Origin: an uncultured Candidatus Saccharibacteria bacterium
Lineage (GTDB): Bacteria > Patescibacteriota > Saccharimonadia > Saccharimonadales > Saccharimonadaceae
Length of the DNA: 32,665 nucleotides
Assembly: GCA_964349645.1 (NCBI GenBank)
Contig: CAYGHK010000001.1
Span: forward strand, 4,235 to 36,899
Direction: 5' to 3'
A program made the position numbers and the translations under genes. The notes beneath the pieces are model-generated. The model searched no databases, had not been told where the DNA came from, and was given only the letters and a program-made list of their open reading frames with translations. Below are positions 7,202-26,662 of this stretch, piece by piece (the first letter of the stretch is position 1; each line of letters opens with the position of its first letter).

Positions 7202-7912
7202 CTATTGTCCCCCAACTCCATGTGAAGTGTCGGGATTTGTGAATTTTTCTAACATTTTTGTTTTTTGAAAATTATTTACATCAACTAAAACATCAACAGG
7301 AATCCTAGGGAACACATACTTACTAAGAGATATGCTCGGAGGGTCCGTTTTAATAATCCAATTATTATCTTCTTTATTTAAAACTATACGAAGGGTGTCT
7401 GAATTTGAATAATCATCACCTATATATTTTAAAGTCGTACCATACCAATCGCCAAAGTGGTATAGTTTGCCCGACTGTATCTCATATAAATTTATTTTAT
7501 TTGAATACTTACTTTTTATTACGTTATGTATTGAGCCCTCCTGATCACCAAGTAGCTGAGAGAGTTTGTCTTGTGAATAGTAGGGGTTAATTTTTATAAC
7601 ATCCCTCTCACTGGGCTTAAAGGATATCAGTCCATCATCATAATCCGTATTACCAGAGTAAGTTATCTGGTAAGTTTCAGATTTATCCAAGCGAATTGAT
7701 TCACCGGATTTTTTTACTTCCGCAACTTTGTTATCTCCATCAAGGTGTTCTCCACTAAATATATGTATATTTACATCCTTGCTATTTTTGTAGTAAACAG
7801 CCACTTCTTTTGTGGACGATATATAACCAATAAACACCACCATAGATGTAATTACTACCACCACCACAATCATGGCTATTATGTATTTTTTATTACTTCG
7901 TATAATATCCAT
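7202..7912 (-). CDS. Hypothetical membrane-anchored protein, last gene of the T4SS-like minus-strand operon
   Basis: The ORF track starts it at GTG 7915. An ATG at 7912 overlaps the upstream TGA by 1 nt (TGATG). It has one N-terminal TM helix (YIIAMIVVVVVITSMVVFIGYI) followed by a soluble domain of about 200 aa. I recognise no motif. Confidence 0.6.
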   Translation of the reverse strand: MDIIRSNKKYIIAMIVVVVVITSMVVFIGYISSTKEVAVYYKNSKDVNIHIFSGEHLDGDNKVAEVKKSGESIRLDKSETYQITYSGNTDYDDGLISFKPSERDVIKINPYYSQDKLSQLLGDQEGSIHNVIKSKYSNKINLYEIQSGKLYHFGDWYGTTLKYIGDDYSNSDTLRIVLNKEDNNWIIKTDPPSISLSKYVFPRIPVDVLVDVNNFQKTKMLEKFTNPDTSHGVGGQ

Positions 7913-8565
7913 CACTCGTGCCTTCCTTCGTTGATATCTTCTGGTAGTAGAGGATTTTCAAAATCATCAAAACGAATATCGATATTAGTTGGATCATAAC
8001 CTTGGTTTTTAATCCAAGAAATTGCTACTTCCCTACCGAGTGGCGTGCTGTCGGTTATTTCTATAAAACTTCCATAAAGTCTATCTGGGGTAGTACCATA
8101 ATCTATTGTGAACGGTCCCTCTACATCTGTATATGGTAGCTCATTTATTATTGGAGTATTATCTTCTATATATCCACCAAGCAAGCTGGACATCTTTGCA
8201 CCTATAGCTTCTCTCTTGAGTTGAATTTCTGGATTTTTACTCAACCAATTTATTGCCTCATCAGACTTAGGATCTGGTGTTAAGCCAATTTCTAAATCTT
8301 CATCATTTACTTGCAAAACAACTTCATTATCTGTGAAGCCGATTTTTTTTGCTACAAACTTGTGCTTACCTGGCTTTAAGTAGTTGTCTCCAGAATTGGA
8401 TTTTTTACCATCTATATATAGGCTTGAATCATTAGGAATTAATTCTACATTTACTTTAGTTTTTCCAATTCTTGAAATAGCTATGGTGAGAAAAAAAGTA
8501 ATTAAAAGTGCAAAAAACACTAAGATGATAATCCATCTTTGCCTAAACGATAATTTTTCTAACAT
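7912..8565 (-). CDS. Hypothetical membrane-anchored protein with a PEGA-like beta domain
   Basis: 217 aa with the N-terminal TM helix WIIILVFFALLITFFLTIAI. The segment VELIPNDSSLYIDGKKSNSGDNYLKPGKHKFVAKKIGFTDNEVVLQV fits the PEGA-domain pattern. Confidence 0.6.
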   Translation of the reverse strand: MLEKLSFRQRWIIILVFFALLITFFLTIAISRIGKTKVNVELIPNDSSLYIDGKKSNSGDNYLKPGKHKFVAKKIGFTDNEVVLQVNDEDLEIGLTPDPKSDEAINWLSKNPEIQLKREAIGAKMSSLLGGYIEDNTPIINELPYTDVEGPFTIDYGTTPDRLYGSFIEITDSTPLGREVAISWIKNQGYDPTNIDIRFDDFENPLLPEDINEGRHE

Positions 8566-8576
8566 CTCATATTCTC

Positions 8577-11081
8577 CTAATCTTTTCTATACCAACTATA
8601 TTTTGAATCCATCGCGTCCCCCTGCCCAGCCATCGGCGACCTACCGGGCCCACCATCCGAGTCCCAGGACGCAGAGGCGAATTTTTTACTAAAACCATCA
8701 ATACTACCAACAAACATAAAGGTATGGCTGCTACTCATTGCAACATCACCCTGCTTTAAATCACTAGTGCTATTTACGGATATTTTTTTCCAATTTCTAT
8801 CTAGCCATTTCTTTTGCGCGATTGTTGTACCGGCTCCCTTTGAAAAATTTGCTCCATAGTTATATTCTGGCTCGTAGCCAGAATTTATCATTGTCAAAGT
8901 TACAAAACCGCCGCAGTCGTTTCCAGGGTATGATATTCCACCAACATACAACCCCTTTTTCCTAGCTTTGGTAACAGCACTTTTATAGGCCGGTCGCTGT
9001 TTACCAAACGGATCGCCGTGATACTCCGGCCATGCATAAGCTTTTATTGTGCCTGCGAAATCTCCGGCAACAGCACCATCGGAACAGCCATTTTCTGTCC
9101 CAGTAGTTGAACCTTTTGCTCCTAGCGCCTTTTCGATTCCCTTCCCTATGCCGTCGGCGTATTTATCTTTATTTAATCCGCTCTGCCCAACCTCGTTATA
9201 TACCCAAGGAACATCTGAAAAGAGCTGTACTATAGATATATCACCAATAGCAGGTAAACCTCTTGAGGCTGGAAAGTCTAGTCTATGAATTTGCACTCCA
9301 CCTTCTTCGGCTTTTCTTGCATCTAATATTTTTTCTGAATATTCCTTACTCTTTTTTGCTACAGCTTCGTTTGTGAAGGTCTTCTTCTTTGTGCCGGTTT
9401 TACGGTATAAGCCAACTTCCTGTGGAGTAACCCAGCCATATGAGGAAGATCCGAAGCTGCCCCCAGTTGTGTGAATACTTACAGCTATAGACGCTTTTGC
9501 TTTATTTGCTATCTTCGCTCTTTCGATAAGACCCACGCTATCTTCAGCATTTTTCTTGGTACTTTTAACTTTATAACCCTTTCCCTCAAGATAATTACGA
9601 ACTTTCTCAGAAATAGTCCAAGCGTCTTTAGTTTCCTGGCCATTGTCAGAGTCTTGTGCTTTGATGCCACTTTCTGGGTCGGTTTCATTTACAGTACTGC
9701 CCGAATGGCCGGGATCTAGGACAACGTCTACAGATCCACCACCAGCCGTGTCTTCACAGACACATGCGGAAGTTCCGCTTGATTCACTTGTTGGTGTAGT
9801 TGCAGCTCCTCCAGTTGATGGTACGCCCGCTCCAAACTTTCTCAAAGTAGCTTTTGCTTTTTTAGTTCGATCGTCTATAGTTGCTGTTCTACTGAGGGGT
9901 CTTTCATATCCAAAATACGGACTTCCATTTACGCTACCCTGGAATGCTTCGGTGGCTTGTTTTACGGTAGTGGTTGACTTTAGTTGACTACCGGCGACAG
10001 GCTCCTTGAGTATTCCTTTGTTATTTAAGCCATCGTCTATTGTCTCAAGTTGTACTTGTAGGTCGTTTGGGTCTTTGCCGGCTGCTTTTGTTGGGTTTAT
10101 AAATTTACCCCCTTTTGTCCACTGTGCAATACCCCAGCCCGCATCACCACTGAAACTTTCAGCTGGGGTTTTAGTTCCAATAGGCGTACCCTGCTTTCTT
10201 TGTGGTTCTACGTTGGATTCAACAAGTAGGTTACCTACAATTCCGGCAGACTGTTCTTTTGTCCAACCTTTAGATACGAAAAAGTTAAAAGCTTTCTCGG
10301 CGTTTTCACTACCTTCTAATCCAGCACCCTCGCTGTCTGGATTACCGCATATGCAAGGGTTGCTTCCATCGCCCTCATCTTCACTAGCCTGTGCCCCTTC
10401 GCTGATATTAGTAAGTGGCGTCTCTTTTGTAACCGGTCTTATTTTTACATTGTCTATTCCGTCCTTGAAGTTAAGTATTTCCGCAACTTCCCACCATAGA
10501 TCTATCTCTGGTTTTTGGTCACCTCCAGCTCCAACATCTGCCTTTTGGGCAACAACACTCTTACCTTTGTATGTAATTTCTAGCTTAGTTTTATTTGGTA
10601 AATCACCAAGTGCGCTGTAGTCGCCACTCCCGGGACTAATACTTAACTCCGCAAAAGAGGACGTTCCAGGAAGTTTATTGTCGGTGTTGCCTACACCAGT
10701 ATCATCAGAACTACCATTACTGCCGTCGGGGTCTTGAATGTTATTCGTAGGTACGAACTTTCCATTTTTGTAAGTTCCGCCATATATACTAGCTTTTGCT
10801 GTGCGCCCTCCAGCGGGTACATTACCAACGCCTCTTGGTGAATACTCTACACTACCACCCGAAGGGCTTGCACTTGCATCGGGTTCTTCTGTGCCACCAC
10901 CCGTTGGATCGCAAGCATTTGGATCGTAGAACTGTACTTCAGAGTCGGAATAAAAGTCTGAAACAGCTTGCACGGGTAGTTCAGATATTAAGGTGATACA
11001 AAATACTAACAACACTCCTGCACGCAGTGCTTTTGAGAAAGTAAAAAATCTATTCTTTAGCAATGTGTACATGAGGTCCAC
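8577..11081 (-). CDS. Secreted or anchored multi-domain peptidoglycan hydrolase: RlpA/DPBB-like, phage-tail-lysozyme-like, MurNAc-L-Ala amidase (Amidase_3-like) and NlpC/P60-like domains
   Basis: 834 aa with an N-terminal hydrophobic anchor (ALRAGVLLVFCITLISELPVQA).
- DPBB-like: ASIYGGTY...LPGTSSFAEL...KLEITYKGKSVVAQKADVGAGG...EIDLWWEVAEIL.
- Lysozyme-like: FFVSKGWTKEQSAGIVGNLLVESNVEP...GWGIAQWT.
- Amidase_3-like: VVLDPGHSG...LIERAKIANKAKASIAVSIHT.
- NlpC/P60-like: GNDCGGFV...LKQGDVAMSSSHTFMFVG.
Domain calls rest on motif recall only. Confidence 0.72.
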   Translation of the reverse strand: MDLMYTLLKNRFFTFSKALRAGVLLVFCITLISELPVQAVSDFYSDSEVQFYDPNACDPTGGGTEEPDASASPSGGSVEYSPRGVGNVPAGGRTAKASIYGGTYKNGKFVPTNNIQDPDGSNGSSDDTGVGNTDNKLPGTSSFAELSISPGSGDYSALGDLPNKTKLEITYKGKSVVAQKADVGAGGDQKPEIDLWWEVAEILNFKDGIDNVKIRPVTKETPLTNISEGAQASEDEGDGSNPCICGNPDSEGAGLEGSENAEKAFNFFVSKGWTKEQSAGIVGNLLVESNVEPQRKQGTPIGTKTPAESFSGDAGWGIAQWTKGGKFINPTKAAGKDPNDLQVQLETIDDGLNNKGILKEPVAGSQLKSTTTVKQATEAFQGSVNGSPYFGYERPLSRTATIDDRTKKAKATLRKFGAGVPSTGGAATTPTSESSGTSACVCEDTAGGGSVDVVLDPGHSGSTVNETDPESGIKAQDSDNGQETKDAWTISEKVRNYLEGKGYKVKSTKKNAEDSVGLIERAKIANKAKASIAVSIHTTGGSFGSSSYGWVTPQEVGLYRKTGTKKKTFTNEAVAKKSKEYSEKILDARKAEEGGVQIHRLDFPASRGLPAIGDISIVQLFSDVPWVYNEVGQSGLNKDKYADGIGKGIEKALGAKGSTTGTENGCSDGAVAGDFAGTIKAYAWPEYHGDPFGKQRPAYKSAVTKARKKGLYVGGISYPGNDCGGFVTLTMINSGYEPEYNYGANFSKGAGTTIAQKKWLDRNWKKISVNSTSDLKQGDVAMSSSHTFMFVGSIDGFSKKFASASWDSDGGPGRSPMAGQGDAMDSKYSWYRKD

Positions 11082-13962
11082 TTCCTATATCTATGAAAAC
11101 TTCGCATTTACTGCCGTTGTCTTTAGTTTTATTAACGTACTCTTGATTTGGCACACCATTTTCACAATTTGAACCAAGTAAATTTGCAGCATCATCGATA
11201 AATTTCTGAACTTTATCATTGTGTCCATTATAAGCTAAAGTTACGCCATCTATTGCGCCTATATCTGCAGCCTTACCTTCACAATGATTACTTCCAGAAC
11301 AAGGTCCTCGGTATAATGAGCTGACTGTAAAGGTGTGGTTTTGCGAGAGAGAAGCAAGAACTTTTATCAAGGCTTCATTTAGTGGTGTATTTTGACCCCT
11401 TGCCATCTTCTCTACCAACTCTTTATCGTCCGATAAAGTTACTTTTCCTGAGTCCAGAATCTCTTTAGCGGCTTCTTGGGCCGTTCCACTAAAAGCCCCT
11501 GTACCACCCGCCGAATCATCAGAGGGTTCTGGTGCTGACTCATCTGCCTTATCATTATGTTGATCGTCAAACCCGCCATCAAAGTAATTCATATGGAACA
11601 TATGGTACTTTAAGGGATCGTCGGTTTTATCTGGGTCTAGGCAGGCTTTTTTATCAAGACCTTCTGGCCAACCTTCCGTTTCGCTTGAAATTGGTTCATC
11701 ATTTTCTACACATTTTTTTAACCACTTATCGTATTCAGTATCTGGTACAGATTCGCCATCCTCATCTATATACCTATAGCACGGTGCTTCATTATCGACG
11801 TCTTGACCACACATGTAGCTCGTAACATTATCGGGGTCGTAGGTGTCGCTACTCGAGGAACCTGCGTCGCCAACTTTATTAGGGTCGAGGCCGTACTGTG
11901 GGTTGCAATATATATCTGCTGCAACATCAAGGCTCTCATAATCGTCATCTGGACATTGTTCGTATTCACCTTCAATATAATCACTACTTTTAGCATATGT
12001 TGAAACCGAAACGCTTGAGGCTGCTACTGCAGCTAGATTGGTCAGTTTTGGAAGTATATTACCAAAAGTTACACCACTTACAGCAGGAGATATTGTTGTG
12101 GCAAAACGACCTGCAAAAGAATCGGTGTTTGAAATATCAAATTGGTACCCAAGTCCGCTATCGGCAGCTATTTTACTTTCAATTTTTTTAGCATCGTTGT
12201 CATAAGCCACAGCCTTAGCTGCGCTTAGCGGGAAAAAACCATGGAAACGATTATTCATAGAGCTTAGCCCCCCAACCCCTCCAACGATAGCATTTCCAGC
12301 TTCGTCGCCGTACTCGTCGCCTGTGATGAGCGTGTTACTTAAGGCGGCGATTAGCCCCGTAGCTGCAAGTCGAATAAGCGGTATGAATGGTTTTGCAGCC
12401 ACACTTCCCACAGCACCAATTGCGTCACCGACGATTGGGATAGATAGTATTAGATCGCCAACAAAGTTAATAGCTTTACATCCACCTGCCGCAAATTTAT
12501 TTTTCGCTATTGCTCCAGCCGTACTAGCCGAGCCACCACCTAGGATGTATTTGCCGTATTCTGAATTATCTTTTGGCAAGTATCCATAAGCCGCATATTG
12601 GTAGCCTGCTGAGTCGAAAGCTGTTTTGTTGTCGTTATTTGGGTTTGGTTTTTGTAAAATTCCAGCAAGTAAGGCCATAGCTCTCGTGGCGCTTGTATTT
12701 TTTGAGTCACCAGCTTTTGTTTGATCAGCAAGCCTGAAGAATATTGCTGCATACCGGATTAAGACAGCAGAATTTTTTAATTTTACTGCAGTTGCCGCGT
12801 AACTGACAAGGGAACGCACCATGCAGACGCCTTGCAATGCGGCGGCATATATATTGCTTAGTTTAGGCACGTGTACCTTGCCGGACTTTTCGTCTAGCTT
12901 AGCCTCTTCCACCTCCTCGGCAAGCGCCTCCGCCATATCTTCGCCCAGCTGTTTTGATACGGCATTTTCTGTACTGTCATTGTTTCTGTCAGGCCTAACA
13001 TTTATATCAAAACCTTCGCCACTAATTGATGTCTTTATTCTACTTTTTAATTCCTTATCTCTTTCTGCTGGATCGTCGATTATTCTATCACTATCAATTC
13101 CTTTAGTTTTACCTATATAAACTTTTAGTTTTGCAAGCATTTTTCTTGCTGAAGTATCTACCCAGTGTGCAACTTTTGATTTATTGAAACTTCGTACATT
13201 TTTGCGAAGATTTGGGCTTTCACGAAACTCCCTCTTAAAGTCCTTAGCGGCGATCTTCTTATTCTTTCCCGTTTCGTCAATATATGTGATTGATTTTATC
13301 TTACATTTAGTTGTACCTACAAAACTTTTACAAACTTCGGTTTCAATTTTTGAGCCCGGGTTGCGCCTTTCAAATTTATCTATTTCTTTTTGAGACATAC
13401 CTTTAAATCGACATTTTACTTTGATTTTGCAGCTTGTTGGGTCGCTGGTCATCTTTTTCACCATTATTCGACCATTACGTCTGTCCATTAGTGCATTCGG
13501 TCTTCTGTCGAACTTGTCCAGCAAGACCTCTTTTAGGTGAATAAGGGCAGTTGTTGGGCCAAGCACGACTGCCAGTCCAATAACAACAATAATAATTCCT
13601 ACCAGGCCACCTATAACACCTTTTTTCTTTGTGAATTGAATATTGAAGCCTACCTTCGATTCTTCGTTTTTAGCCTTCGAAACGTTAGTAACCCAACCAG
13701 CACCAGCCGCCTCCTTGGATCTTATGCCATCTTGGCTTGCGTCAAGGTCTTCGGTATCATTTTCGGCAGCGTTATTTTCGTAATCTTCGAGAGATTTGTC
13801 GCTAGGCTCATCAGGCGTGTATGTAGGGTTTTCCAGGATTGATTTACTTGGTGATTTTGAACCACCATAGTTTTTTTCAACTTTGTCAGACCATTTTTTA
13901 TCACCAACGTTTCTTGCTGGGTTTAGGTCGTCTTGTTCTGGTTTTTGTTTTGTGTTGGGCAT
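11050..13962 (-). CDS. Large membrane-anchored T4SS-associated protein with a C-terminal LAS-family (peptidase M15-like) zinc peptidase domain
   Basis: 970 aa. It has an acidic, disordered N-terminus, a TM helix (VIGGLVGIIIVVIGLAVVLG) and a Gly/Ala-rich hydrophobic central region. The C-terminus reads SSLYRGPCSGSNHCEGKAADI...GSGPHVHIA, matching the SxHxxGxAxD...HxH zinc-ligand pattern of M15/hedgehog-type peptidases. It overlaps the next gene by 32 nt. Confidence 0.65.
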   Translation of the reverse strand: MPNTKQKPEQDDLNPARNVGDKKWSDKVEKNYGGSKSPSKSILENPTYTPDEPSDKSLEDYENNAAENDTEDLDASQDGIRSKEAAGAGWVTNVSKAKNEESKVGFNIQFTKKKGVIGGLVGIIIVVIGLAVVLGPTTALIHLKEVLLDKFDRRPNALMDRRNGRIMVKKMTSDPTSCKIKVKCRFKGMSQKEIDKFERRNPGSKIETEVCKSFVGTTKCKIKSITYIDETGKNKKIAAKDFKREFRESPNLRKNVRSFNKSKVAHWVDTSARKMLAKLKVYIGKTKGIDSDRIIDDPAERDKELKSRIKTSISGEGFDINVRPDRNNDSTENAVSKQLGEDMAEALAEEVEEAKLDEKSGKVHVPKLSNIYAAALQGVCMVRSLVSYAATAVKLKNSAVLIRYAAIFFRLADQTKAGDSKNTSATRAMALLAGILQKPNPNNDNKTAFDSAGYQYAAYGYLPKDNSEYGKYILGGGSASTAGAIAKNKFAAGGCKAINFVGDLILSIPIVGDAIGAVGSVAAKPFIPLIRLAATGLIAALSNTLITGDEYGDEAGNAIVGGVGGLSSMNNRFHGFFPLSAAKAVAYDNDAKKIESKIAADSGLGYQFDISNTDSFAGRFATTISPAVSGVTFGNILPKLTNLAAVAASSVSVSTYAKSSDYIEGEYEQCPDDDYESLDVAADIYCNPQYGLDPNKVGDAGSSSSDTYDPDNVTSYMCGQDVDNEAPCYRYIDEDGESVPDTEYDKWLKKCVENDEPISSETEGWPEGLDKKACLDPDKTDDPLKYHMFHMNYFDGGFDDQHNDKADESAPEPSDDSAGGTGAFSGTAQEAAKEILDSGKVTLSDDKELVEKMARGQNTPLNEALIKVLASLSQNHTFTVSSLYRGPCSGSNHCEGKAADIGAIDGVTLAYNGHNDKVQKFIDDAANLLGSNCENGVPNQEYVNKTKDNGSKCEVFIDIGSGPHVHIAKE

Positions 13963-13975
13963 GAGTAATTTGCCT

Positions 13976-16698: not shown

Positions 16699-16741
16699 TT
16701 ATTACTGTTTACCCTCTTCTCGCTACGGCGGGGATCAGGCA

Positions 16742-18468: not shown

Positions 18469-18509
18469 ACTTGCAAAATTATACTTTTTATGCTAATATA
18501 ACTGATGAA

Positions 18510-19937
18510 ATGTCAGAACAACCACCACAAACAAACAGCGAAACACCAAATCCTGCAGATAACTTCGAAGATATTCGGGATTTAGTTGAAGTTGGTGATG
18601 ATGAAAATGGTGACGGTGTAAACACTCTTCACAGGCCAGATGGAAGCGGCAAGCTACTTTCTGTTGATGAGCTTGAGATGATACGGGAAAATCAAGATCT
18701 AATACGAAATGAAACCCAAGAAATGCCCAGCGATGGTCTTGAAAGTGAACCCAGAGCCGAAAAGATAGCTCACTACATACACAAACATAGTAAGGGTAAA
18801 GGCACTTCTCCCGAAGTAGTTAGGGAATTGTATAAAAGACTCGAAGCAGAGGGCGATGAATTTCTAGATGACGACCCCACTGAAGTAATGCAAGCGCCAG
18901 ATTCTCGGTTTACCCCCGAGGAGATTCGAAAACAACAAGAATTACTAGCTAAGATAGATGAAGCAGATCGTATATTCGATCGAAAAAAGCGCATGTTAGC
19001 GCTTAAAGCAATTGCCGAAGATGATGAATATAGAAATACTGATTTCGCTGGAGATACTGGCAACTTGGCTGTTGAAGCTGCACAGAGAATACGAATAAGT
19101 AAGACTCGTAGCAAATGGAATCCTCGTAAATTGTGGGTAAAAAGATCCAAAAAGAGTAATTACGAACTTAGTCAGATGTCTTACGAAGAAGACAAAAGAT
19201 ACAGTCTTCACGCTGCAAAAGCTATGGGTGGCAACCTACATATAAAAGATAAAAACACCTACCCAGGCCGGAACGAAACAATACACAGGGCTAACAAGTG
19301 GTATGAAACAAAAGTCGTCCTTGGTTTGGAAGAAAAACTAGCTACAGTTAAGCGTCAAATTCCTGAAGCAGAAGAAAAAGTTCAAGAGGCGGAGCTCAGG
19401 CTCGCTGCTGATAGCGAAAATAAAGGTCTGCAAGAAGAGGCTGAAAAGGCAAAGGTTGTTCTACGTACATTAGAAAAATCAGAAGTTAGTACATTTCATG
19501 AACTAGAACAGAGGAAATACGATACTCTAGATGCGCTTTGCACACTACGTGGATTTGGCGGTAATGAGTATTTTGGCAAAGGTATTGCCTATTTGGCTAT
19601 TACAAAAAACGATCCAAATCTTCTTCGCGCACTTGAAGGTCTTGATCGTGTTAGTCTTAGGCGTCGAGAACAGCCAGTTGAAATACCTGGACTTGGGAAA
19701 GCGCGCGAGCTGTATCACAAAACTCGTATCAATAAAGCCGAAGTGATGATGATTCCTGAAAATCTAAAGCAGAAAATTAAAACAATAGAAGATAAAAGGC
19801 AAGGTGGACAGATAGATGGTTCCGAAGCAGCATTAGCTCGAGAAAAGGCTATAGCCCAAGCTCGAGAAGAAGCTCGGTCAATTAAGCAGCCAGATTGGCG
19901 TGATGAAGCTATTATTCGAATTAATAAATTAGCTTAA
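18510..19937 (+). CDS. Hypothetical soluble protein with an acidic N-terminus and coiled-coil-like Glu/Lys-rich segments
   Basis: The ORF is open from TTG at 18471. The first ATG, at 18510, gives MSEQPPQTNS.... There is no TM helix. Its stop codon overlaps the stop of the convergent gene within cTTAAg (19934-19937). Confidence 0.6.
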   Translation: MSEQPPQTNSETPNPADNFEDIRDLVEVGDDENGDGVNTLHRPDGSGKLLSVDELEMIRENQDLIRNETQEMPSDGLESEPRAEKIAHYIHKHSKGKGTSPEVVRELYKRLEAEGDEFLDDDPTEVMQAPDSRFTPEEIRKQQELLAKIDEADRIFDRKKRMLALKAIAEDDEYRNTDFAGDTGNLAVEAAQRIRISKTRSKWNPRKLWVKRSKKSNYELSQMSYEEDKRYSLHAAKAMGGNLHIKDKNTYPGRNETIHRANKWYETKVVLGLEEKLATVKRQIPEAEEKVQEAELRLAADSENKGLQEEAEKAKVVLRTLEKSEVSTFHELEQRKYDTLDALCTLRGFGGNEYFGKGIAYLAITKNDPNLLRALEGLDRVSLRRREQPVEIPGLGKARELYHKTRINKAEVMMIPENLKQKIKTIEDKRQGGQIDGSEAALAREKAIAQAREEARSIKQPDWRDEAIIRINKLA

Positions 19938-21268
19938 GATTTCCTACTAATCCACTTGCTGTAAGCCATCATCTCAATACCAAGTTGTGAATAATCAACT
20001 CTATAGAATCCATCACTATCAACTATAACTGCATTAGGGTGGCTACTAGCTACATCCTGGGCCATTACACCGACGTATTCGGTATCTTCCCAATTGTATC
20101 TAAATCTATAAAAAGGGATACCGCTAATCGTACCTAATCGTTGCACATCACGCTTTAGACGCCTATCTGATTGCTGGTAAGGTGCAGCCCGGTAGTCTGC
20201 AGCATCCTGCACTACTACATCGTGGAACCCAGGAGGCATTGCATCAATTTTTGCCTGAGTAAATGGTTTTTCAGCAGCAGCAGCAGCAAGAATTTGCCTT
20301 GCATGAATCCCCACATCATCACCCGGCCCAGCACTTGCTGCACGCTGAACGTACTGTTGGAATGATCTTTCGTCTAGATCACCAACATTAGTTGAGTCAA
20401 CCTTCTTGAAGGTCGCTTCGAAGCTTTTTGGACCACCACTTGTATCTCCTGCTGTTTCAACAAAGCTGCTGGTAATATCTGGCCTTGTTTTTTCAAGTGC
20501 ATCATAATGATCTTTACCAAGATGGGCTGCAAATGCTTGAGCTTCAGCAGAGCCGCTTTGCATTTGTGATGCAAAATCTCCAACCATATCCCTGCCGGGT
20601 GCGCCATTTTGCATTGCAAGATTTGCAATTGCTGCTCGTTGTTCATCAGTTTGGGCTTGAGCAAACTGATCGCGCAAATAATTATCTCTTCCTGTACCGC
20701 CCCCTGCATACCTTCCTCCAGGATCAGACTGGTAAGCTAGCATAGCACTTTTTATTCGAAGATCTCTTGCCTCTAGATTAAGTTTTGCTGGCTCCATTTC
20801 TTCAATTTCGCGCTTTAACCTCATCTTATCTACATTCAAGCCAACTCGTACCCCAGCGCCTCGATCAGCGCCAACGCCAACGTATCTATCTGCATTTTCT
20901 CCCATATCACTTATAACATCGTCCTCTAGGAGTCGTTTAGCTTCAGCCTCTCTATTCTGCCGTTGTGCATCCGTACGAGTAGCGCGGCCGCCTGCCCAGC
21001 GACGAAAGCGGTTTCTGCGGTTGTCTGTTATGAGGTTGCCGTTTTGATCAAGGCCGGCAGTAGTGCGCCTTGCGGATGTTTCCGTTTTGGCGAGCTGTGA
21101 TCTTTTGCCAGCATCTTCTTTCATGCCGCCTGTTAATTTGTTTCCCAAGTTTTGACCTACTCCGTACACTTTACCTAACATTGAGTTTGATGATTTTAGT
21201 AAAGCAGGTATTGCAAATAGTGGCAATGCCAGTATGACGAGTTTGAGTAAATAATTTATGACATCCAT
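19934..21268 (-). CDS. Membrane-anchored protein with a C-terminal intramolecular chaperone auto-processing domain (peptidase S74, tail-fibre/endosialidase type)
   Basis: 444 aa with the N-terminal TM helix LLKLVILALPLFAIPALL. The C-terminus reads SDRRLKRDVQRLGTISGIPFYRFRYNWEDTEYVGVMAQDVASSHPNAVIVDSDGFYRVDYSQLGIEMM. This closely follows the S74 pattern SDxRLK...GxxAQ(E/D)V...P..V......vdY..l. Confidence 0.7.
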   Translation of the reverse strand: MDVINYLLKLVILALPLFAIPALLKSSNSMLGKVYGVGQNLGNKLTGGMKEDAGKRSQLAKTETSARRTTAGLDQNGNLITDNRRNRFRRWAGGRATRTDAQRQNREAEAKRLLEDDVISDMGENADRYVGVGADRGAGVRVGLNVDKMRLKREIEEMEPAKLNLEARDLRIKSAMLAYQSDPGGRYAGGGTGRDNYLRDQFAQAQTDEQRAAIANLAMQNGAPGRDMVGDFASQMQSGSAEAQAFAAHLGKDHYDALEKTRPDITSSFVETAGDTSGGPKSFEATFKKVDSTNVGDLDERSFQQYVQRAASAGPGDDVGIHARQILAAAAAEKPFTQAKIDAMPPGFHDVVVQDAADYRAAPYQQSDRRLKRDVQRLGTISGIPFYRFRYNWEDTEYVGVMAQDVASSHPNAVIVDSDGFYRVDYSQLGIEMMAYSKWISRKS

Positions 21269-21296
21269 GCTTTATATCCTTATATATTTTATCACT

Positions 21297-22859
21297 TTAG
21301 ATTAAACTCGCTGCTAAAATTGATGCGCCAAATACTACCATTAGCATAGGAAATATTATCAGTTGTTGAGTAAATAAGCTCCACCATTTTTTGAAATATT
21401 GGTCAGTATTTGGCAACAGCCAAGCGGCGAATGCAAGTGGAGATACAAGTACTAAGCCAAGCAAGATTACTTGGCGAGCAATCAACACCAGCATGGTTGC
21501 AAAGATGGATATCAAAGCAGCAAGCAATAACGGAACGGCGAGCCATAGTAGGGCGGTTGCGCCAATACTTGCCGCCGCTACTCCACCAGCCAGCAGGCCT
21601 CCGCCAATAACGGTTCCAGCTGCTACATCACCACCAGTAGAGAAGAAGTTGACTCCCCCACTGCCACCGCCGACTGCTTCATTTATTTGTGCACTTATGC
21701 TTGTGTCGCCACCACCCGCACCAATCATGAAGCCAACAATTGAGGTACCGGCTATGTTGCTGACGTCTATTAGGAATGCACATATATAGAACGATAAGTT
21801 TATAAATATTGCTCCCATGACAAGGCGAGGTAACATTCGTTTTATGCCATAGTTTGATAGCCCTACAGAGGTTGATTGTGAAAATACAATGACCATAAAC
21901 ACAATTATTAGAAGAATATTCGCCATGCTAACAAAGGCACTATGTATAGCCTGAATTTTACCCCCGTCATCTTTTTCGGCAAGTATTCGGAAGGTCAGCA
22001 TGCTTTCGATGATGCTACCCGCCCCCTGTATAGCTGATGCGAAACCATCGATTATCGGACAAAGCACCCACCCTAGAGCACCACCCTTACAACTATCAAC
22101 GTCCCCAGCAGCGCCTCCGGCACCCGTACCACCAGCCGCTTCAATAATTGCTTTTATTTCATTTTGTTCTGCTTCGGACATTTTGTAATAATTACGGGTA
22201 TTAACCGAGAATGACTCTCTAGGAAGTCCGTTATTACACTCCGGAGATAGGATTGAACTAATCTTTTCTCCCTTCGAGCTACCACCTAGATGAGGATTTC
22301 TATCATCATCGTTCAAGTTAGCAAAACTAGTATTTTCATCCTTTTCGTGAACAACACTATCCGCGGCTCCAGCTTCACCTATTTTTGTAATTTTTGTAAT
22401 GCCTGCTGTTGTGTCGTAGTTGTCGCCACCTTGAAGTGCATTCCAGTCGTTAAACTTGTAGCCCATTACATAGTCTATTTTAAAATAAGGCCTGGTGGAG
22501 GGTTCGGTTAAGGATAAAGTAGTGCCCGAACAATATACTTGTGTGACAGCAAAGTATTCGAGCTTGTCATCGGGATCGCCTGCTCCATGCTGGTTAAGTT
22601 GTTGATTGATTTCAGATGTAAATGAAAATATCGTCCCATCACCGAAGAGGCCGCCTTTTGCGACAACTTTTATCATGTCACCAACTTCTTCTTGTTTTTT
22701 GCCATCATCAAAAATGGTTTTCAGTTTGTTTTTGTCAGCATCGTCATAAAAGAGCGCGAGGTTAGTTGCTCCCACTGCTTGGGTAGCTCCGCTTGTAATA
22801 ATAGCTAAAACAACAACCAAGAATATTCCTGCCCAGCTATGTCTAAAGAAACGTTTCAT
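21297..22859 (-). CDS. VirB6/TrbL-like polytopic T4SS channel protein with a large N-terminal extracytoplasmic domain
   Basis: 520 aa. It has a signal peptide (AGIFLVVVLAIITSGATQAVGA) and a soluble region of about 290 aa. The C-terminal half has multiple TM helices and Gly-rich loops, including LVLVSPLAFAAWLLPNTDQYFKKWWSLFTQQLIIFP, which resembles the TrbL/VirB6 core. Confidence 0.65.
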   Translation of the reverse strand: MKRFFRHSWAGIFLVVVLAIITSGATQAVGATNLALFYDDADKNKLKTIFDDGKKQEEVGDMIKVVAKGGLFGDGTIFSFTSEINQQLNQHGAGDPDDKLEYFAVTQVYCSGTTLSLTEPSTRPYFKIDYVMGYKFNDWNALQGGDNYDTTAGITKITKIGEAGAADSVVHEKDENTSFANLNDDDRNPHLGGSSKGEKISSILSPECNNGLPRESFSVNTRNYYKMSEAEQNEIKAIIEAAGGTGAGGAAGDVDSCKGGALGWVLCPIIDGFASAIQGAGSIIESMLTFRILAEKDDGGKIQAIHSAFVSMANILLIIVFMVIVFSQSTSVGLSNYGIKRMLPRLVMGAIFINLSFYICAFLIDVSNIAGTSIVGFMIGAGGGDTSISAQINEAVGGGSGGVNFFSTGGDVAAGTVIGGGLLAGGVAAASIGATALLWLAVPLLLAALISIFATMLVLIARQVILLGLVLVSPLAFAAWLLPNTDQYFKKWWSLFTQQLIIFPMLMVVFGASILAASLI

Positions 22860-22941: not shown

Positions 22942-23649
22942 ATGAAAAAGTACTTATTGATAGCTTTTGTATTTGGACTGCAGATCTCTGCGCTTGTTGT
23001 GCTTACGGCGTCACCAAAAGCGTTGGCGGCTTATTCTAGCGATAAGGGTACGGAAACTTGCCAAAGCCTTTCGCCGCCAGATGACGATAACTTAAAGGCA
23101 TGTGAATATGGCTACAAAGTAGGATACGAAGGAGCTAAAGGTGGTAAATGTTTTGCTCATGTAAAAAAAGTGATGAAAGACAAATATCACAAAAACATAA
23201 ATACAGTCGAGCAGTTAAAAGCAAATGCTGTTGCTGCTCCGATGTACAGTATTTGTGGTAAAGGAAAAATTAAAGGAGCTGAGCAAAAAGCTGCAGATGA
23301 TGCCGCAAAAGAAAGTGCAGTTGCCAATGCAAAAAACACCTGCTCGGGAGTGCCGACATTTTTTGACTTTGGGTGTAATGCAGCCGGCAGCGACAAAGAA
23401 AAAAGTGGCAAAGCAAACCCAATAAGCAGGATATTATTTACAGTTATTTCTTGGCTAACAGGTCTTGTTACACTTGCAGCTATAGGTGGCGTTATATACG
23501 GTGGCATATTGTACACAAGTGCAGGTGACAATAGTAGTCAAACCCAAAAAGGTATAAGCTTTATATTCAATGCTGTTCTCGGCTTGCTTTTATGGATAAG
23601 TGCCTACGCAATAATTAACTTCCTTGTGCCTGGAGGGCTATTCACATGA
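22942..23649 (+). CDS. Pilin paralogue P1: VirB2/TrbC-like module fused to a Cys-rich N-terminal domain of about 150 aa
   Basis: 235 aa. The signal peptide ends in ALAA, and the mature N-domain has six Cys. The C-terminal module reads LVTLAAIGGVIYGGILYTSAGDNSSQTQKGISFIFNAVLGLLLWISAYAIINFLV. Confidence 0.7.
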   Translation: MKKYLLIAFVFGLQISALVVLTASPKALAAYSSDKGTETCQSLSPPDDDNLKACEYGYKVGYEGAKGGKCFAHVKKVMKDKYHKNINTVEQLKANAVAAPMYSICGKGKIKGAEQKAADDAAKESAVANAKNTCSGVPTFFDFGCNAAGSDKEKSGKANPISRILFTVISWLTGLVTLAAIGGVIYGGILYTSAGDNSSQTQKGISFIFNAVLGLLLWISAYAIINFLVPGGLFT

Positions 23650-24083
23650 GTAGGAAATTAGCAGGTATTTTGACTCTAGTATTGTTGTTTGCGGGAATTG
23701 TCAGCACTACTTCGTTGAGTCAAACAGCAACTGCTGCTGAATGTAAAAACGAAGTTTCATTGCTACCCGGAGCAAAGCCATGGTATTCGGGCTTGTGTAA
23801 AATGGATGGCGCAAACAAAACAAACGATATAGAGCTCACTACTCCACAAGAATCTGGCACAAAAATAGCGCTTAATATTTTAAATATAATCATGGTTTTG
23901 GCCGGTTATGTTGCTGTTGCTTATGTAATGTGGGGAGGGTTTAACTACCTGACCGCAACTGGAGACTCTGGAAAAACCGCTAGTGCCAAAAGAACTATTA
24001 CAAATGCGTTAATTGGGTTACTTATTTCACTTTCGGCTGTGGCGATAATATATTTTATAGGAGGCGTATATGGTATACCGTAG
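23646..24083 (+). CDS. Pilin paralogue P2 (VirB2/TrbC-like)
   Basis: 145 aa. The signal peptide ends in ATAA and the variable region has 2 Cys. The module reads VLAGYVAVAYVMWGGFNYLTATGDSGKTASAKRTITNALIGLLISLSAVAIIYF. ATGA overlap with P1. Confidence 0.72.
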   Translation: MSRKLAGILTLVLLFAGIVSTTSLSQTATAAECKNEVSLLPGAKPWYSGLCKMDGANKTNDIELTTPQESGTKIALNILNIIMVLAGYVAVAYVMWGGFNYLTATGDSGKTASAKRTITNALIGLLISLSAVAIIYFIGGVYGIP

Positions 24084-24477
24084 AGTTTTATTTTTGTGCG
24101 TAGCGCTATTTGCGGTTGTTGGTTTGTCTTTTTTTGCAAACAACGCTCACGTTGCGGCAGCTCCAGACGAAGAGCCACCAAAGCCAGCCATTGACGTTGC
24201 CGACCCCGGTAAACTGTCTGTCGATGAAGGCGAAGTCGGCATTTTAAAAGCCGACAGCGGGACTATCGTTACAAATACACTTAATGCTGTTTACGGAATC
24301 AGTGCAGTTATTGCAGTAATTGCCATTATTGCTGCTGGAATAATGTATACAATTTCCGATGGCGATCCTGGCAAAATTAGTACAGCGAAAAATGCGATTA
24401 TATATGCGACGGTAGGTTTGGTGATTATAGGCTCGGCGTTTATAATTACAGGTATAGTCCAAAGAATAGGAACATAA
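24070..24477 (+). CDS. Pilin paralogue P3 (VirB2/TrbC-like)
   Basis: 135 aa. The signal peptide ends in VAAA and the mature variable region has no Cys. The module reads AVIAVIAIIAAGIMYTISDGDPGKISTAKNAIIYATVGLVIIGSAFIITG. An AGGAGG RBS sits 5 nt upstream, inside the end of P2. Confidence 0.72.
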   Translation: MVYRRVLFLCVALFAVVGLSFFANNAHVAAAPDEEPPKPAIDVADPGKLSVDEGEVGILKADSGTIVTNTLNAVYGISAVIAVIAIIAAGIMYTISDGDPGKISTAKNAIIYATVGLVIIGSAFIITGIVQRIGT

Positions 24478-24479
24478 AT

Positions 24480-24854
24480 ATGCAAAGAATCAAAAAAATT
24501 TCCTTTATAGCCTCAATAGCGGTGCTATTACTTGCAGTAGTCAGCTTGCTCTCTTCGGATATTGCTATGGCCGCACTACCAGGCTGTGGGACAAGTAATA
24601 CACAAATATGTACTGCAAGCGACGACCTGCTTGGAGGTATATTGAAAGACGTTATAAATGTAATGCTTTACCTTGCTGGAGCGATTGCGGTAATCATGGT
24701 GGTGGTTGGCGGTATTCGCTATATTACTAGCGACGGTGACCCTGGTGCGGCTAGTAAAGCAAAAAGTACGATTATATATGCCTTGGTTGGCCTGGTTGTA
24801 GCAATAATGAGTTTTGGTATAGTAAACTTTGTGTTAGATAGGATAAAAGCATGA
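24480..24854 (+). CDS. Pilin paralogue P4 (VirB2/TrbC-like)
   Basis: 124 aa. The signal peptide ends in AMAA and the variable region has 2 Cys. The module reads LAGAIAVIMVVVGGIRYITSDGDPGAASKAKSTIIYALVGLVVAIMSFGIVNFVL. Confidence 0.75.
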   Translation: MQRIKKISFIASIAVLLLAVVSLLSSDIAMAALPGCGTSNTQICTASDDLLGGILKDVINVMLYLAGAIAVIMVVVGGIRYITSDGDPGAASKAKSTIIYALVGLVVAIMSFGIVNFVLDRIKA

Positions 24855-25243
24855 CATTAAAAAGAATAAAAAATACACTACTATCAATTTCAGCAATTGT
24901 TTTTCTTAGCGGCGTAGGTACTGTTTGTATTACTCCCCCATCAGCTTTGGCGGACACAAAAACAGAAGCACAAACAGCTGTCGACGATCTCAGCGGTACT
25001 CATGTTGATGGGACAAACAAAATAAAAACTACCATAAGAGACATAATCAACATCTTGCTGTTTTTGATCGGTATGATTGCGGTTATCATGATTGTTATTG
25101 CAGGCTTTAGGTTTGTAACAAGCAACGGTGACTCCAATACTGTATCTTCGGCCAAAAATACAATTATTTACGCTGTTATTGGTATCGTAGTCGCAGTCAT
25201 GGCCTACGCCATAGTGAACTTTATATTAGATAATATAGCTTAA
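24851..25243 (+). CDS. Pilin paralogue P5 (VirB2/TrbC-like)
   Basis: 130 aa. The signal peptide ends in ALA and the mature variable region has no Cys. The module reads LIGMIAVIMIVIAGFRFVTSNGDSNTVSSAKNTIIYAVIGIVVAVMAYAIVNFIL. ATGA overlap with P4. Confidence 0.75.
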   Translation: MTLKRIKNTLLSISAIVFLSGVGTVCITPPSALADTKTEAQTAVDDLSGTHVDGTNKIKTTIRDIINILLFLIGMIAVIMIVIAGFRFVTSNGDSNTVSSAKNTIIYAVIGIVVAVMAYAIVNFILDNIA

Positions 25244-25245
25244 AT

Positions 25246-25683
25246 ATGTTTCGTATTTTTATTTTACTTACACTTCTTGTAGGCACAGTAGCAAGTCTCG
25301 CGCAGCCTGTATCTGTGTTTGCGCTTGATGGCAATGATGAGACCAGTTCTAGAGAAGCGCTCAAGCAAGTTGGAGATAATCCTGAAGAAGAGTGTAAAGC
25401 TAGAGGGGGCAAGCTCAATGCTCAAGATGAATGTGTCGATAGTAACGGCAAGAGTCTTAATGAGGTGACATATACACTTCGCAATGTTGTGAACCTTCTC
25501 CTATATGTAGCAGGTATTATTGCCGTAGTTATAATTGTTATTGCAGGCTTTAGGTTCGTAACAAGCAACGGCGATGCCGCACAGGTTTCAAAGGCCAAAA
25601 ACACTATAATATATGCGCTTGTAGGCCTTGTAGTTGCGGTTATGTCATACGCTATAGTGAACTTTATTTTGGAAAATATATAA
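25246..25683 (+). CDS. Pilin paralogue P6 (VirB2/TrbC-like)
   Basis: 145 aa with a signal peptide and 2 Cys in the variable region. The module reads VAGIIAVVIIVIAGFRFVTSNGDAAQVSKAKNTIIYALVGLVVAVMSYAIVNFIL. Confidence 0.75.
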   Translation: MFRIFILLTLLVGTVASLAQPVSVFALDGNDETSSREALKQVGDNPEEECKARGGKLNAQDECVDSNGKSLNEVTYTLRNVVNLLLYVAGIIAVVIIVIAGFRFVTSNGDAAQVSKAKNTIIYALVGLVVAVMSYAIVNFILENI

Positions 25684-25700
25684 GACAAATGAGGAATAAT

Positions 25701-26165
25701 ATGAAAAACATAAAGAAAATATTAGGATCGGCACTACTTGTTTTGGGTGTTGGCTTGCTGTTTGTGCCGGCAACAAGCCAGGCAAAAGTCACCATAGATG
25801 ATGCTAACGCAGAAAACCACAAAGTAGCCTGTGATAAAAACGGCGGAACGGTAGATGGAAATGGCAACTGTAGCGAGGGCGGCTCAGACATTGCCAGTAT
25901 ATTTCGCGCTGTAACGAATACGATGTTGTTTTTGGTAGGTGCTGTTGCGGTTATCATGCTAATTGTTGGTGGATTTCGTTATGTCACAAGTAATGGCGAC
26001 CAAAACTCTGTTACGGCTGCCAAAAACACTATAATGTACGCACTGATTGGTATAGTAGTAGCTTTCCTAGCATTTGCGGCTGTTAACTTTGTCACCAACC
26101 AGTTGGAAAACGCAAATACGTCCGGAGAGTCAGGCTATATACAACAAGCAAGTATTTTGGTATAA
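25701..26165 (+). CDS. Pilin paralogue P7 (VirB2/TrbC-like)
   Basis: The track starts it at ATG 25689. I prefer the ATG at 25701 (MKNIKKILG...), 5 nt after GAGGA. The signal peptide ends in SQA and the variable region has 2 Cys. The module reads LVGAVAVIMLIVGGFRYVTSNGDQNSVTAAKNTIMYALIGIVVAFLAFAAVNFVT. Confidence 0.75.
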   Translation: MKNIKKILGSALLVLGVGLLFVPATSQAKVTIDDANAENHKVACDKNGGTVDGNGNCSEGGSDIASIFRAVTNTMLFLVGAVAVIMLIVGGFRYVTSNGDQNSVTAAKNTIMYALIGIVVAFLAFAAVNFVTNQLENANTSGESGYIQQASILV

Positions 26166-26203
26166 CTAAAGCATACATCTTATAAACATAAGGAGAATAC
26201 AAA

Positions 26204-26662
26204 ATGAAAATATCAAACTTAAAAACAAAACTACAGATGTTTGCTGCGACAAATTTCGCAGTGCTAACTCTAGTTGTTGGTGGAGTACTAGGCCTGTCTG
26301 CAACAGCCTTGGCTGCTGAGCAAACCTGTACTATTGAGTCTGGTAACAGTACGGCAGTTAATGATCTTACTAACCCACTCAGTGATGGTAGCGCCTGTGC
26401 TAAGGGTAATGGTCAAGGAGATAACTTGAACGACATCTTCAAAACAGTGGCTAACATTCTACTCTTTGTAGTTGGTGCTGTTGCGGTTATCATGCTTATC
26501 ATTGGTGGTCTGCGCTACGTTACAAGTAATGGCGATCAGAACGCTGTAACAGGAGCAAAAAATACTATTATGTATGCCATCATTGGTATAGTAGTAGCCT
26601 TCCTGGCGTTTGCGGCTGTTAACTTCGTGACTTCACAGCTTGAAGCAGCGAATACAAACTAG
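26204..26662 (+). CDS. Pilin paralogue P8 (VirB2/TrbC-like)
   Basis: 152 aa with an AAGGAG RBS upstream. The signal peptide ends in ALAA and the variable region has 2 Cys. The module reads VVGAVAVIMLIIGGLRYVTSNGDQNAVTGAKNTIMYAIIGIVVAFLAFAAVNFVT and is nearly identical to P7. Confidence 0.75.
   Translation: MKISNLKTKLQMFAATNFAVLTLVVGGVLGLSATALAAEQTCTIESGNSTAVNDLTNPLSDGSACAKGNGQGDNLNDIFKTVANILLFVVGAVAVIMLIIGGLRYVTSNGDQNAVTGAKNTIMYAIIGIVVAFLAFAAVNFVTSQLEAANTN

Follow-up and report, generated by a model that had tools for sequence, protein, structure and literature searches.

A predicted chromosomal type IV secretion system of Saccharibacteria beside the replication genes, with VirB2-type pilins and a split VirB6

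What does a set of type IV secretion genes do beside the replication genes of a saccharibacterial chromosome, when the parts for transferring DNA between cells are not found with it? This question is raised by a stretch of 32,665 nucleotides from an uncultured Candidatus Saccharibacteria bacterium (contig CAYGHK010000001.1 of assembly GCA_964349645.1), called the window below, in which positions 7202 to 26662 carry a locus resembling a type IV secretion system (T4SS). An earlier sequence-only reading had taken this locus for a chromosomally fixed filament or translocation machine, plausibly used for cell-cell or host interaction, and not for a conjugation module. Gene order and family matches led us to a similar view. 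The locus is very probably a chromosomal T4SS of Saccharibacteria (Saccharimonadia, Patescibacteria), with a syntenic orthologue in SEML1_0004-0019 of Southlakia epibionticum ML1. Judged by its profile matches, its cytoplasmic and membrane core is of the monoderm, MPF-FATA type. Systems with this composition, with a pilin array, an origin-proximal site and neither a relaxase nor a coupling protein, are already in print, and the window adds no new type to them. Few envelope machines are known to be essential for the epibiotic life of Saccharibacteria, and this T4SS is among them.

A monoderm-type core at a conserved site

A six-frame listing of open reading frames (ORFs) with translation gave 19 ORFs in 7202-26662, arranged in four units of alternating strand. 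The four abutting units described earlier were thus borne out by the ORF map, and the start/stop overlaps quoted with them (TAATG at 15871, TGATG at 7912 and ATGA at 23646 and 24851) are present; TAATG at 15871 joins the stop of a 275-aa ORF to the start of virB4 with a 1-nt overlap. The locus abuts recF, which ends at 7199, the first T4SS ORF having its edge at 7202. Its features are as follows.

7202-17719, minus strand: unit 1, seven genes
7202-7915, minus strand: bitopic membrane protein, 236 or 237 aa, probable ATG at 7912; positional counterpart of SEML1_0004
7912-8565, minus strand: bitopic membrane protein, 217 aa, single transmembrane helix; positional counterpart of SEML1_0005 (PEGA/Ig-like in ML1)
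8577-11081, minus strand: hydrolase 1, 834 aa, probable start at 11072 (831 aa); multidomain peptidoglycan hydrolase, VirB1/PrgK analogue
11050-13962, minus strand: hydrolase 2, 970-aa bitopic protein; counterpart of SEML1_0007
13976-15871, minus strand: virB4, 631-aa ATPase without the usual N-terminal domain
15871-16698, minus strand: TrsD-like gene, 275 aa; counterpart of SEML1_0009
16742-17719, minus strand: prgI/virB3, 325-aa ORF with a long charged C-terminal tail; probable ATG at 17680 (312 aa)
17788-19937, plus strand: unit 2, two genes
17788-18468, plus strand: orphan soluble protein, 226 aa, very basic C terminus; divergent from prgI
18471-19937, plus strand: soluble, highly charged protein, 475 or 488 aa (gene call, 475 aa)
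19934-22859, minus strand: unit 3, two genes
21297-22859, minus strand: VirB6/TrbL-like protein, 520 aa, polytopic; N-terminal extracytoplasmic alpha/beta domain, then about five transmembrane helices
19934-21268, minus strand: VirB6 C-terminal piece, 444 aa; one transmembrane helix, hydrophilic domain, Peptidase_S74
22942-26662, plus strand: unit 4, eight genes
22942-23649, plus strand: pilin-like protein 1, 235 aa, long Cys-rich N-terminal region
23646-24083, 24070-24477, 24480-24854, 24851-25243, 25246-25683, 25689-26165 and 26204-26662, plus strand: pilins 2 to 8, VirB2-type

The comparison with S. epibionticum ML1 was based on published gene tables (order and annotation). Both have, in the same order, dnaA, dnaN, recF, two small bitopic or exported proteins, a lysozyme-type hydrolase, a protein of about 1,000 aa with a C-terminal Hedgehog/DD-peptidase domain, VirB4, a partner of about 290 aa and PrgI, followed by a VirB6-like protein, a PF18895 pilin array, hsp20 and comF, and neither cluster has a relaxase or a coupling protein. 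The difference lies between prgI and the pilins, where ML1 carries SEML1_0011 (998 aa), SEML1_0012 (NTF2-like, VirB8 fold, nonessential) and SEML1_0013 (1,088 aa, VirB6-like), whereas in the window that slot holds a pair of orphan genes on the plus strand and a split VirB6 that carries an S74 domain. The pilins number six in ML1 and eight in the window. In Wang 2023 (Cell), SEML1_0006-0019 is annotated as a T4SS of the Gram-positive type whose pilins are essential and in which no coupling protein or relaxase is recognizable, and transposon sequencing (Tn-seq) in the same work showed that the ML1 T4SS is essential for epibiotic growth (PMC10633639). The suggestion of a machine for host interaction is well served by this result for the orthologous locus.

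The VirB4 ATPase was matched by the NCBIfam model NF045971 (conju_CD1110) with 367 bits against a cut-off of 325 and by Pfam P-loop_TraG at 9.3e-31; AAA_10 also matched. Against PDB, the match to VirB4 of the monoderm Thermoanaerobacter (4AG5) had an E value of 5e-51, compared with just 5e-4 for the diderm TrwK. VirB4 also had a weak CedB match (1.5e-14). Both Walker A (AKSGAGKSF) and Walker B (MLIVDEAW), the strings on which the VirB4 call had first been made, are intact, and with the profile and 4AG5 matches that call holds. The protein spans just positions 182 to 734 of the 752-position NF045971 profile.

The neighboring 275-aa ORF, which has no transmembrane helix, matched NF041427 (TrsD) at 6.4e-9 and positions 98 to 255 of NF045975 (VirB4_plasma, the VirB4 model of Mycoplasma integrative and conjugative elements [ICEs]) at 2.2e-8. 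A protein identical to it in public assemblies carries a precomputed PF26593 TraC-like match; a PDB sequence search with it gave nothing usable. VirB4 and this ORF together tile NF045975 (Mbov_0397), covering positions 283 to 891 and 98 to 255, respectively. Read from these matches, the 275-aa ORF is the VirB4 N-terminal domain made as a separate soluble protein, supplying the part that VirB4 lacks. The components listed earlier all stood, and the VirB4 N-domain/TrsD-like protein is to be added to them.

PrgI was recognized by PF12666 (2.9e-12; 47.4 bits against a gathering threshold of 27) and carries the two-helix hydrophobic hairpin expected for PrgI/VirB3, in agreement with its first assignment. 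Its start was called at 312 or 325 aa in different gene calls, and relatives begin with MAVYKVPQ. Thus, where profile searches had been proposed as a check, VirB3 and VirB4 were supported directly, and VirB6 was supported through its homologues (see below).

To place the locus among its relatives, one genome per species was scanned with VirB4, which gave 549 stretches that encode relatives of it; of the best 80 loci, nearly all are labeled as Saccharibacteria or Patescibacteria metagenome-assembled genomes (MAGs), with 76 to 98% identity. All window proteins were then compared by tblastn with these 80 loci and their 10-kb flanks. The TrsD-like protein was found in 77 loci, PrgI in 73 and VirB6 in 60; pilins were seen in about 30, with the flank length of 10 kb limiting this count. 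DnaN and DnaA were found in 53 and 50 of the 80 loci, respectively. Sequence reached 9 kb or more downstream of virB4 in 56 loci, and 52 of these had dnaN or dnaA there, at 5.0 to 9.2 kb from virB4 (median, 6.2 kb). Therefore, the location beside the replication genes is conserved across the class and is not peculiar to this genome. The claim of a locus fixed in the chromosome by the origin, for which synteny in related genomes had been named as a check, is supported by these 52 loci and by the recF-T4SS-hsp20-comF order shared with ML1.

This agrees with published work on related systems. Quinonero-Coronel 2025 (Microb Genom) analyzed 2,474 Patescibacteria virB4 genes, which form a clade nested in MPF-FATA, and reported TrsD beside VirB4, a PrgI-type VirB3, VirB6 and VirB2 arrays of 2 to 11 genes with low mutual identity; relaxases were nearly absent, homologues of the coupling protein were mostly distant from virB4, and dnaA, dnaN, rnpA and rpmH were enriched near virB4, which was interpreted in terms of gene dosage (PMC12102498). 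McLean 2020 found, in TM7x and throughout the Saccharibacteria, a VirB4/VirB6/PrgI region beside which lies an array of proteins with Sec signals, and a 2025 review counts such systems as a new type of T4SS (PMC12857230). The window shares with the surveyed systems and the TM7x region an MPF-FATA-like VirB4, TrsD, PrgI, VirB6, VirB2 arrays, the lack of a relaxase and the proximity to dnaA, dnaN, rnpA and rpmH, and no substantive difference from them was found. The split VirB6, the S74 domain and the Mycoplasma ICE pilin-like family are not mentioned in Quinonero-Coronel 2025 (PMC12102498).

Pilins, VirB6 and wall hydrolases

According to an alignment, all eight proteins of unit 4 have a signal peptide, a variable region and a conserved two-helix hairpin. 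Pilins 2 to 8 matched PF18895 (T4SS_pilin) with 41 to 51 bits, all above the gathering threshold, and three of them also exceeded that of PF04956 (TrbC; TrbC/VirB2). Pilin 1 scored 22.1 bits against PF18895, below the threshold of 26.6, but it shares the C-terminal hairpin. The eight VirB2-like pilins that had been counted earlier were confirmed in this way, seven above the PF18895 threshold and the eighth through its hairpin. The array is visible in the DNA as tandem paralogues (62 to 79%); identity to the first pilin is 19 to 28%.

The best NCBIfam match for all eight was NF045849 (Mbov_0395, a Mycoplasma ICE pilin-like conjugal transfer protein), at 3.5e-5 for pilin 1 and 1e-8 to 2e-11 for pilins 2 to 8, two of which were above the cut-off of 40. 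The sequence-only reading had started from the premise that monoderm systems of the PrgI type normally have no VirB2 pilin. This premise is not absolute, since all eight pilins best match a Mycoplasma ICE family. Because the closest curated family comes from Mycoplasma ICEs, VirB2-like pilins may be ancestral in monoderm MPF-FATA systems and not borrowed from diderms. The likeness to these ICEs thus extends to the pilins (NF045849) and to VirB4 with its TrsD-like partner (NF045975), with modest scores; the ICEs differ in that they carry a coupling protein (CDS5) and transfer DNA, and their small two-helix proteins were called VirB3-like, not pilins, in a review.

Could the eight small proteins instead be Sec-exported effector or toxin subunits released by the T4SS, as in Bordetella ptx/ptl? 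The signal peptides of all eight, their variable and partly Cys-rich N-terminal regions and the lack of a coupling protein, as in Ptl, would fit such a role, which McLean 2020 proposed for TM7x. Against it, all eight match pilin families (PF18895, PF04956 and NF045849) over the C-terminal two-helix hydrophobic hairpin that defines VirB2, the identity to pertussis S1 that McLean reported was just 11%, and later work treats the small proteins as pilins. We consider that the eight proteins are very unlikely to be such subunits.

The candidate for VirB6 is the 520-aa protein. A homologue search with it returned 519 proteins at an E value of ≤1e-5, most of which carry a precomputed PF19590 or PF04610 match; in a sample of 46, 20 matched PF04610 (TrbL), the best at 1.4e-6. 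In an AlphaFold2 model (pLDDT, 73.6), long membrane helices come after an extracytoplasmic alpha/beta domain at the N terminus. R388 TrwI/VirB6 chains were among the Foldseek matches to this model, with E values of 1.6 to 7 and target-length-normalized TM-scores of 0.30 to 0.40; since these matches were nonsignificant, we take them as weak consistency only. A search of PDB with the VirB6 family profile gave nothing usable. The assignment of the 520-aa protein as VirB6 is supported by transitive homology and synteny, on which we accept it. The earlier VirB6/TrbL-like call was correct as seen through the homologues and needs one correction: VirB6 consists of two ORFs here.

Two large proteins were examined as the wall hydrolases. 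Hydrolase 1 (831 aa in the gene call) consists of an N-terminal transmembrane segment, a phage-tail lysozyme domain, Amidase_3 and a weakly endolysin-like C terminus of the cysteine-peptidase type. It matched PF18013 (Phage_lysozyme2) at 2.6e-27, PF01520 (Amidase_3) at 1.9e-13, phi29 gp13 at 7e-7 and PHROG endolysin and tail families; the C terminus gave a subthreshold match to ELLD (1e-3), the sole Pfam match on subfragments.

The 970-aa protein has a charged cytoplasmic N terminus, a transmembrane helix at about 113 to 141, a large Cys-rich extracytoplasmic region and a C-terminal domain of the LAS metallopeptidase type (VanY/Hedgehog). Just 10 homologues were found, two of which match PF02557 (VanY). 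Residues S891, H893, A898, D900 and H966 are nearly invariant among the homologues and make up the LAS signature SxHxxGxAxD...H. When a profile of the C terminus was compared with PDB, 15 of the 16 subthreshold matches listed were LAS enzymes or Hedgehog domains (best, 2VO9; E value, 0.08); a homologue search with the C-terminal 180 aa alone gave nothing. The peptidase domain was present in just 1 of the 80 loci, which suggests domain swapping in this protein. Thus, where two giant cell wall hydrolases had been proposed, the 834-aa protein was confirmed as one, and the assignment of the 970-aa protein is well supported by indirect LAS evidence.

Of the two small bitopic proteins at the left end, the one at 7202-7915 has an N-terminal transmembrane helix only and gave no family match in Pfam, NCBIfam, PHROGs or PADLOC. 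It is 78% identical in the closely related strain L081, where the housekeeping neighbors are 96 to 100% identical. The protein at 7912-8565 had no Pfam match, and the small bitopic proteins had no match in PHROGs or PADLOC.

Missing conjugation parts and the role of the locus

We searched for conjugation parts among the window proteins, scanned with Pfam and NCBIfam, and in about 9 kb to the left and 3 to 4 kb to the right recovered from the same or a closely related strain. As had been claimed for the window before, none of its scanned proteins belonged by these matches to a family of the coupling protein (VirD4/TcpA), VirB11, relaxase, integrase or VirB7/9/10, and the recovered flanks held no such gene either. 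The left flank contains genes for glycosyltransferases, a Wzm/Wzt-type ABC exporter, an epimerase and a flippase, and the right flank contains three ORFs without an assigned family. No direct repeats bracket the locus. Because no relaxase, coupling protein or integrase was found in the window or the recovered flanks, and no flanking direct repeats were seen, the locus does not appear to be a conjugation module. The sequence-only reading had reached this conclusion from the window, and Wang 2023 and Quinonero-Coronel 2025 hold the same view.

The contrary view is that the locus is the transfer module of an integrated conjugative element that moves DNA to other cells, with its coupling protein, relaxase and oriT located beyond the window. 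VirB4 does score above the cut-off of a conjugative-family model (conju_CD1110), and VirD4-like genes occur elsewhere in many Patescibacteria genomes, with relaxases in a few (PMC12102498). However, the window and the recovered flanks have no integrase, relaxase or coupling protein, no bracketing or att repeats were found, the locus occupies the same chromosomal site by dnaN/dnaA in 52 of 56 loci across the class, and its G+C content at third codon positions (GC3) resembles that of neighboring genes. Moreover, the orthologous locus is essential for growth, whereas the distant coupling protein gene is not. An ICE was rejected for the want of an integrase in the window and recovered flanks, for the want of att repeats and for the conserved site, and we regard this view as highly improbable.

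A comparison with conjugative MPF-FATA systems (pCF10 Prg/Pcf, pIP501 Tra, pGO1 Trs and ICEs of the CD1110 family) showed the same VirB4, TrsD-like protein, PrgI and TrbL/VirB6-type channel and, as with PrgK, a large N-terminally anchored multidomain wall hydrolase. In contrast to these systems, the window has no coupling protein, relaxase or oriT, surface adhesin or recognizable VirB8-like protein; it has eight VirB2-type pilins, and the locus lies at a fixed chromosomal site and not in a mobile element. Bordetella Ptl and Brucella VirB likewise lack a coupling protein, and Helicobacter ComB and archaeal Ced import nucleic acid. Of these four, all but Ced are diderm machines and have VirB7/9/10, which the window lacks, and beyond the shared VirB2/3/4/6 parts no homology to any of the four was found. 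As for diderm VirB/D4-type systems (MPF-T), their VirB7/VirB9/VirB10 and VirB11 were not matched in the scanned window proteins.

How, then, might the machine work? In the mechanism that we propose, Sec would insert the pilin precursors into the membrane. Held on the VirB6 platform by VirB3 and the TrsD-like domain, VirB4 probably extracts the pilins and polymerizes them into a tube. The roles of VirB4, VirB3 and VirB6 and the extraction of VirB2 are those of established T4SS biology. The lysozyme, amidase and peptidase proteins would open the epibiont's own wall, and probably the host wall, so that the tube could reach the host envelope. The machine would serve host exploitation, not conjugation.

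What passes through such a tube was considered in three ways. A conduit that takes up host material independently of a coupling protein is, tentatively, our first choice, since a 2024 perspective, which called the function of the T4SS completely unknown, named uptake of host nucleic acid as a candidate given the dispensable comEC (PMC11665869), and since a 2026 preprint on another epibiont reported tubular structures, possibly T4SS pili, together with host RNA acquisition (bioRxiv 10.64898/2026.06.21.733656). Effector export ranks second and seems somewhat unlikely; the export of cytoplasmic DNA-protein substrates is argued against because the coupling protein is missing in cis. Pure attachment or adhesion comes third and is distinctly unlikely.

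Several points weigh against a T4SS that builds a pilus for use on the host. No pilus has been demonstrated for any Patescibacteria system of this kind, and McLean 2020 took the small-protein array of TM7x as secreted effectors. The absence of a coupling protein and relaxase covers the window and short flanks, that is, genes in cis only, and VirD4-like genes lie far from virB4 in many Patescibacteria, including ML1, where they are nonessential (PMC12102498). No VirB8-like component (NTF2 fold; PrgL, TraM) was matched at the sequence level in the window, the bitopic proteins at 7202-8565 included. The calls of VirB6 and of the second hydrolase were made by transitive or motif-level evidence. 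The 520-aa protein had no direct Pfam match and no PDB sequence match, and Foldseek gave nothing for its model at an E value of ≤0.001. The 970-aa protein had no Pfam match, a PDB sequence search with it returned nothing usable, and its AlphaFold2 model was poor (pLDDT, 40.6), with Foldseek matches that were noise.

Split VirB6, divergence among relatives and flanking genes

Two close relatives, L021 and L004, encode VirB6 in one ORF (871 and 847 aa, respectively). In the window VirB6 is made of two ORFs, the first of 520 aa and the second of 444 aa, which lie 28 nt apart in different frames; a ribosome-binding-site-like AAGGA precedes the ATG of the second. The 444-aa ORF aligns to the C-terminal halves of the single ORFs of both relatives. 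An identical split was found on 10 contigs from several samples, and many VirB6 homologues are 500 to 535 aa long, so the short form recurs. The split is therefore not an assembly error, and a pseudogene was rejected since the split recurs on these contigs and in many homologues. A decaying, nonworking T4SS remnant, as might be read from a VirB4 that matches profile positions 182 to 734 only, with its N-domain moved to a separate ORF, and from a VirB6 that is interrupted here but single in L004 and L021, is the least probable of the alternatives, because 77 of 80 loci have the TrsD-like protein and VirB4 as separate ORFs, an arrangement that is essential in ML1, AAGGA stands before the second VirB6 ATG, the VirB6 split is the same on 10 independent contigs from several samples, many homologues have 500 to 535 aa, and the Walker motifs are intact.

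The C terminus of the 444-aa fragment matched PF13884 (Peptidase_S74), an intramolecular chaperone domain of the phage tail-fiber type, at 5e-8 and phrog_6121 at 5.8e-20. It contains SDRRLK at residues 367 to 372 (S367/K372), in line with a conserved SDxRLK motif, which we take to be the Ser/Lys autoproteolysis dyad of S74 domains, as in endosialidase and MYRF. These features suggest that the C-terminal domain of VirB6 is a trimerizing, self-processed module. The closest relatives lack the S74 domain. Nevertheless, a search of 1.8 billion representatives found VirB6 combined with S74 in further proteins, including a fused protein of 961 aa (P0142) with 41% identity to the membrane part of the window VirB6 and weak TrbL and S74 matches. 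A literature search returned no paper connecting VirB6 with a Peptidase_S74 domain.

Next, we compared the rates at which the parts of the locus diverge. Between L004 and the window, VirB4 (98%), the TrsD-like protein (95%) and DnaA (97%) are conserved, whereas the 970-aa protein (29%), the 834-aa hydrolase (40%), VirB6 (44%), the small bitopic proteins (39 to 50%) and the pilins (44 to 77%) are divergent. In strain L081, Jag is 100% and DnaA 96% identical, and the bitopic proteins, at 78 to 84%, are the most divergent. Thus, the envelope-facing parts (hydrolases, VirB6, small bitopic proteins and pilins) diverge far faster than VirB4, TrsD and DnaA, and fast turnover of this kind would be expected of a host-range cassette.

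The two plus-strand genes, both of which encode soluble, highly charged proteins, occupy a variable slot between prgI and VirB6. For the 226-aa protein, no transmembrane helix and no family in Pfam, NCBIfam, PHROGs or PADLOC was found, and tblastn detected it in none of the 80 related loci; it is 100% conserved in the same strain from other samples. The 488-aa protein, likewise without a match in these four collections, was detected in 3 of the 80 loci, those of the closest relatives, at the same position. This environmental variant helps to sort the parts of the system. VirB4, the TrsD-like protein and PrgI are fixed, and the pilins, the hydrolase domains, the architecture of VirB6 and the genes in the prgI-VirB6 slot are replaceable.

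A split VirB6 with an S74 tip and envelope-facing parts that turn over rapidly are modest leads, and the predicted self-cleaving S74 domain is an oddity open to testing. That all three ideas hold together, namely, a self-processed trimerizing S74 module on VirB6, turnover like that of a host-range cassette and ancestral monoderm VirB2 pilins, we regard as doubtful.

Some short contigs with Saccharibacteria-type T4SS genes are filed under MAGs of Flaviaesturariibacter, Segetibacter and Microbacteriaceae (L046, P0053 and P0078). This placement probably reflects misbinning, although it could conceivably reflect co-occurrence with a host.

The genes on either side of the T4SS locus are as follows.

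Left of dnaA, minus strand: jag, yidC, rnpA and rpmH, from the ORF map
3432-4808, plus strand: dnaA, from the ORF translation; DnaA Pfam match in the gene calls of strain L081
5049-6158, plus strand: dnaN, from the ORF translation; DnaN Pfam match in the gene calls of strain L081
6165-7199, plus strand: recF, RecF Pfam match
26724-27191, minus strand: hsp20, Pfam HSP20 at 1.1e-19
27302-27964, plus strand: comF, TIGR00201 comF at 1e-19
Right of comF: DUF308 membrane protein, tRNA-Arg and genes without an assigned family

Judging from repeated motifs, the dnaA-dnaN spacer (4809-5048) probably contains the origin of replication (oriC) and a variant DnaA box. The motif TTTTACACA occurs in four copies within 4813-4991 and once at 3320 (region 3184-3431); the whole window has six copies against 1.7 expected, for a motif picked post hoc. 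A 25-nt repeat has copies at 4891 and 4970 in the same spacer. The canonical DnaA box TTATCCACA is not enriched (7 found, 9.2 expected). With this placement, oriC is about 2.2 kb from the locus and not about 4 kb, as had been estimated. Scans for sigma-70 promoters (34 against 43 in shuffled sequences) and terminators (17 against 18) did not exceed the shuffles, which makes the promoter-like sites of both divergent spacers no more than suggestive.

The G+C content is 0.29 to 0.36 for dnaA-recF and the two small bitopic genes (3432-8565) and 0.37 to 0.45 in the rest of the T4SS locus. The last two genes of the window (30712-32660) have GC3 values of 0.71 and 0.55, compared with 0.19 to 0.42 for every other window gene, and neither has a family match. 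This points to a segment that is foreign or was acquired recently. An exact-sequence lookup of the 30712-31365 product returned no record. A 423-aa ORF runs off the window end and has 481 to 485 aa in other contigs. At the left end, the partial ORF at 1-1266 encodes a DUF2142 membrane protein. In strain L081, a surface-polysaccharide cluster (GT4, GT2, Wzm/Wzt ABC exporter, epimerase and flippase) lies beyond the DUF2142 gene, at 10462-20459.

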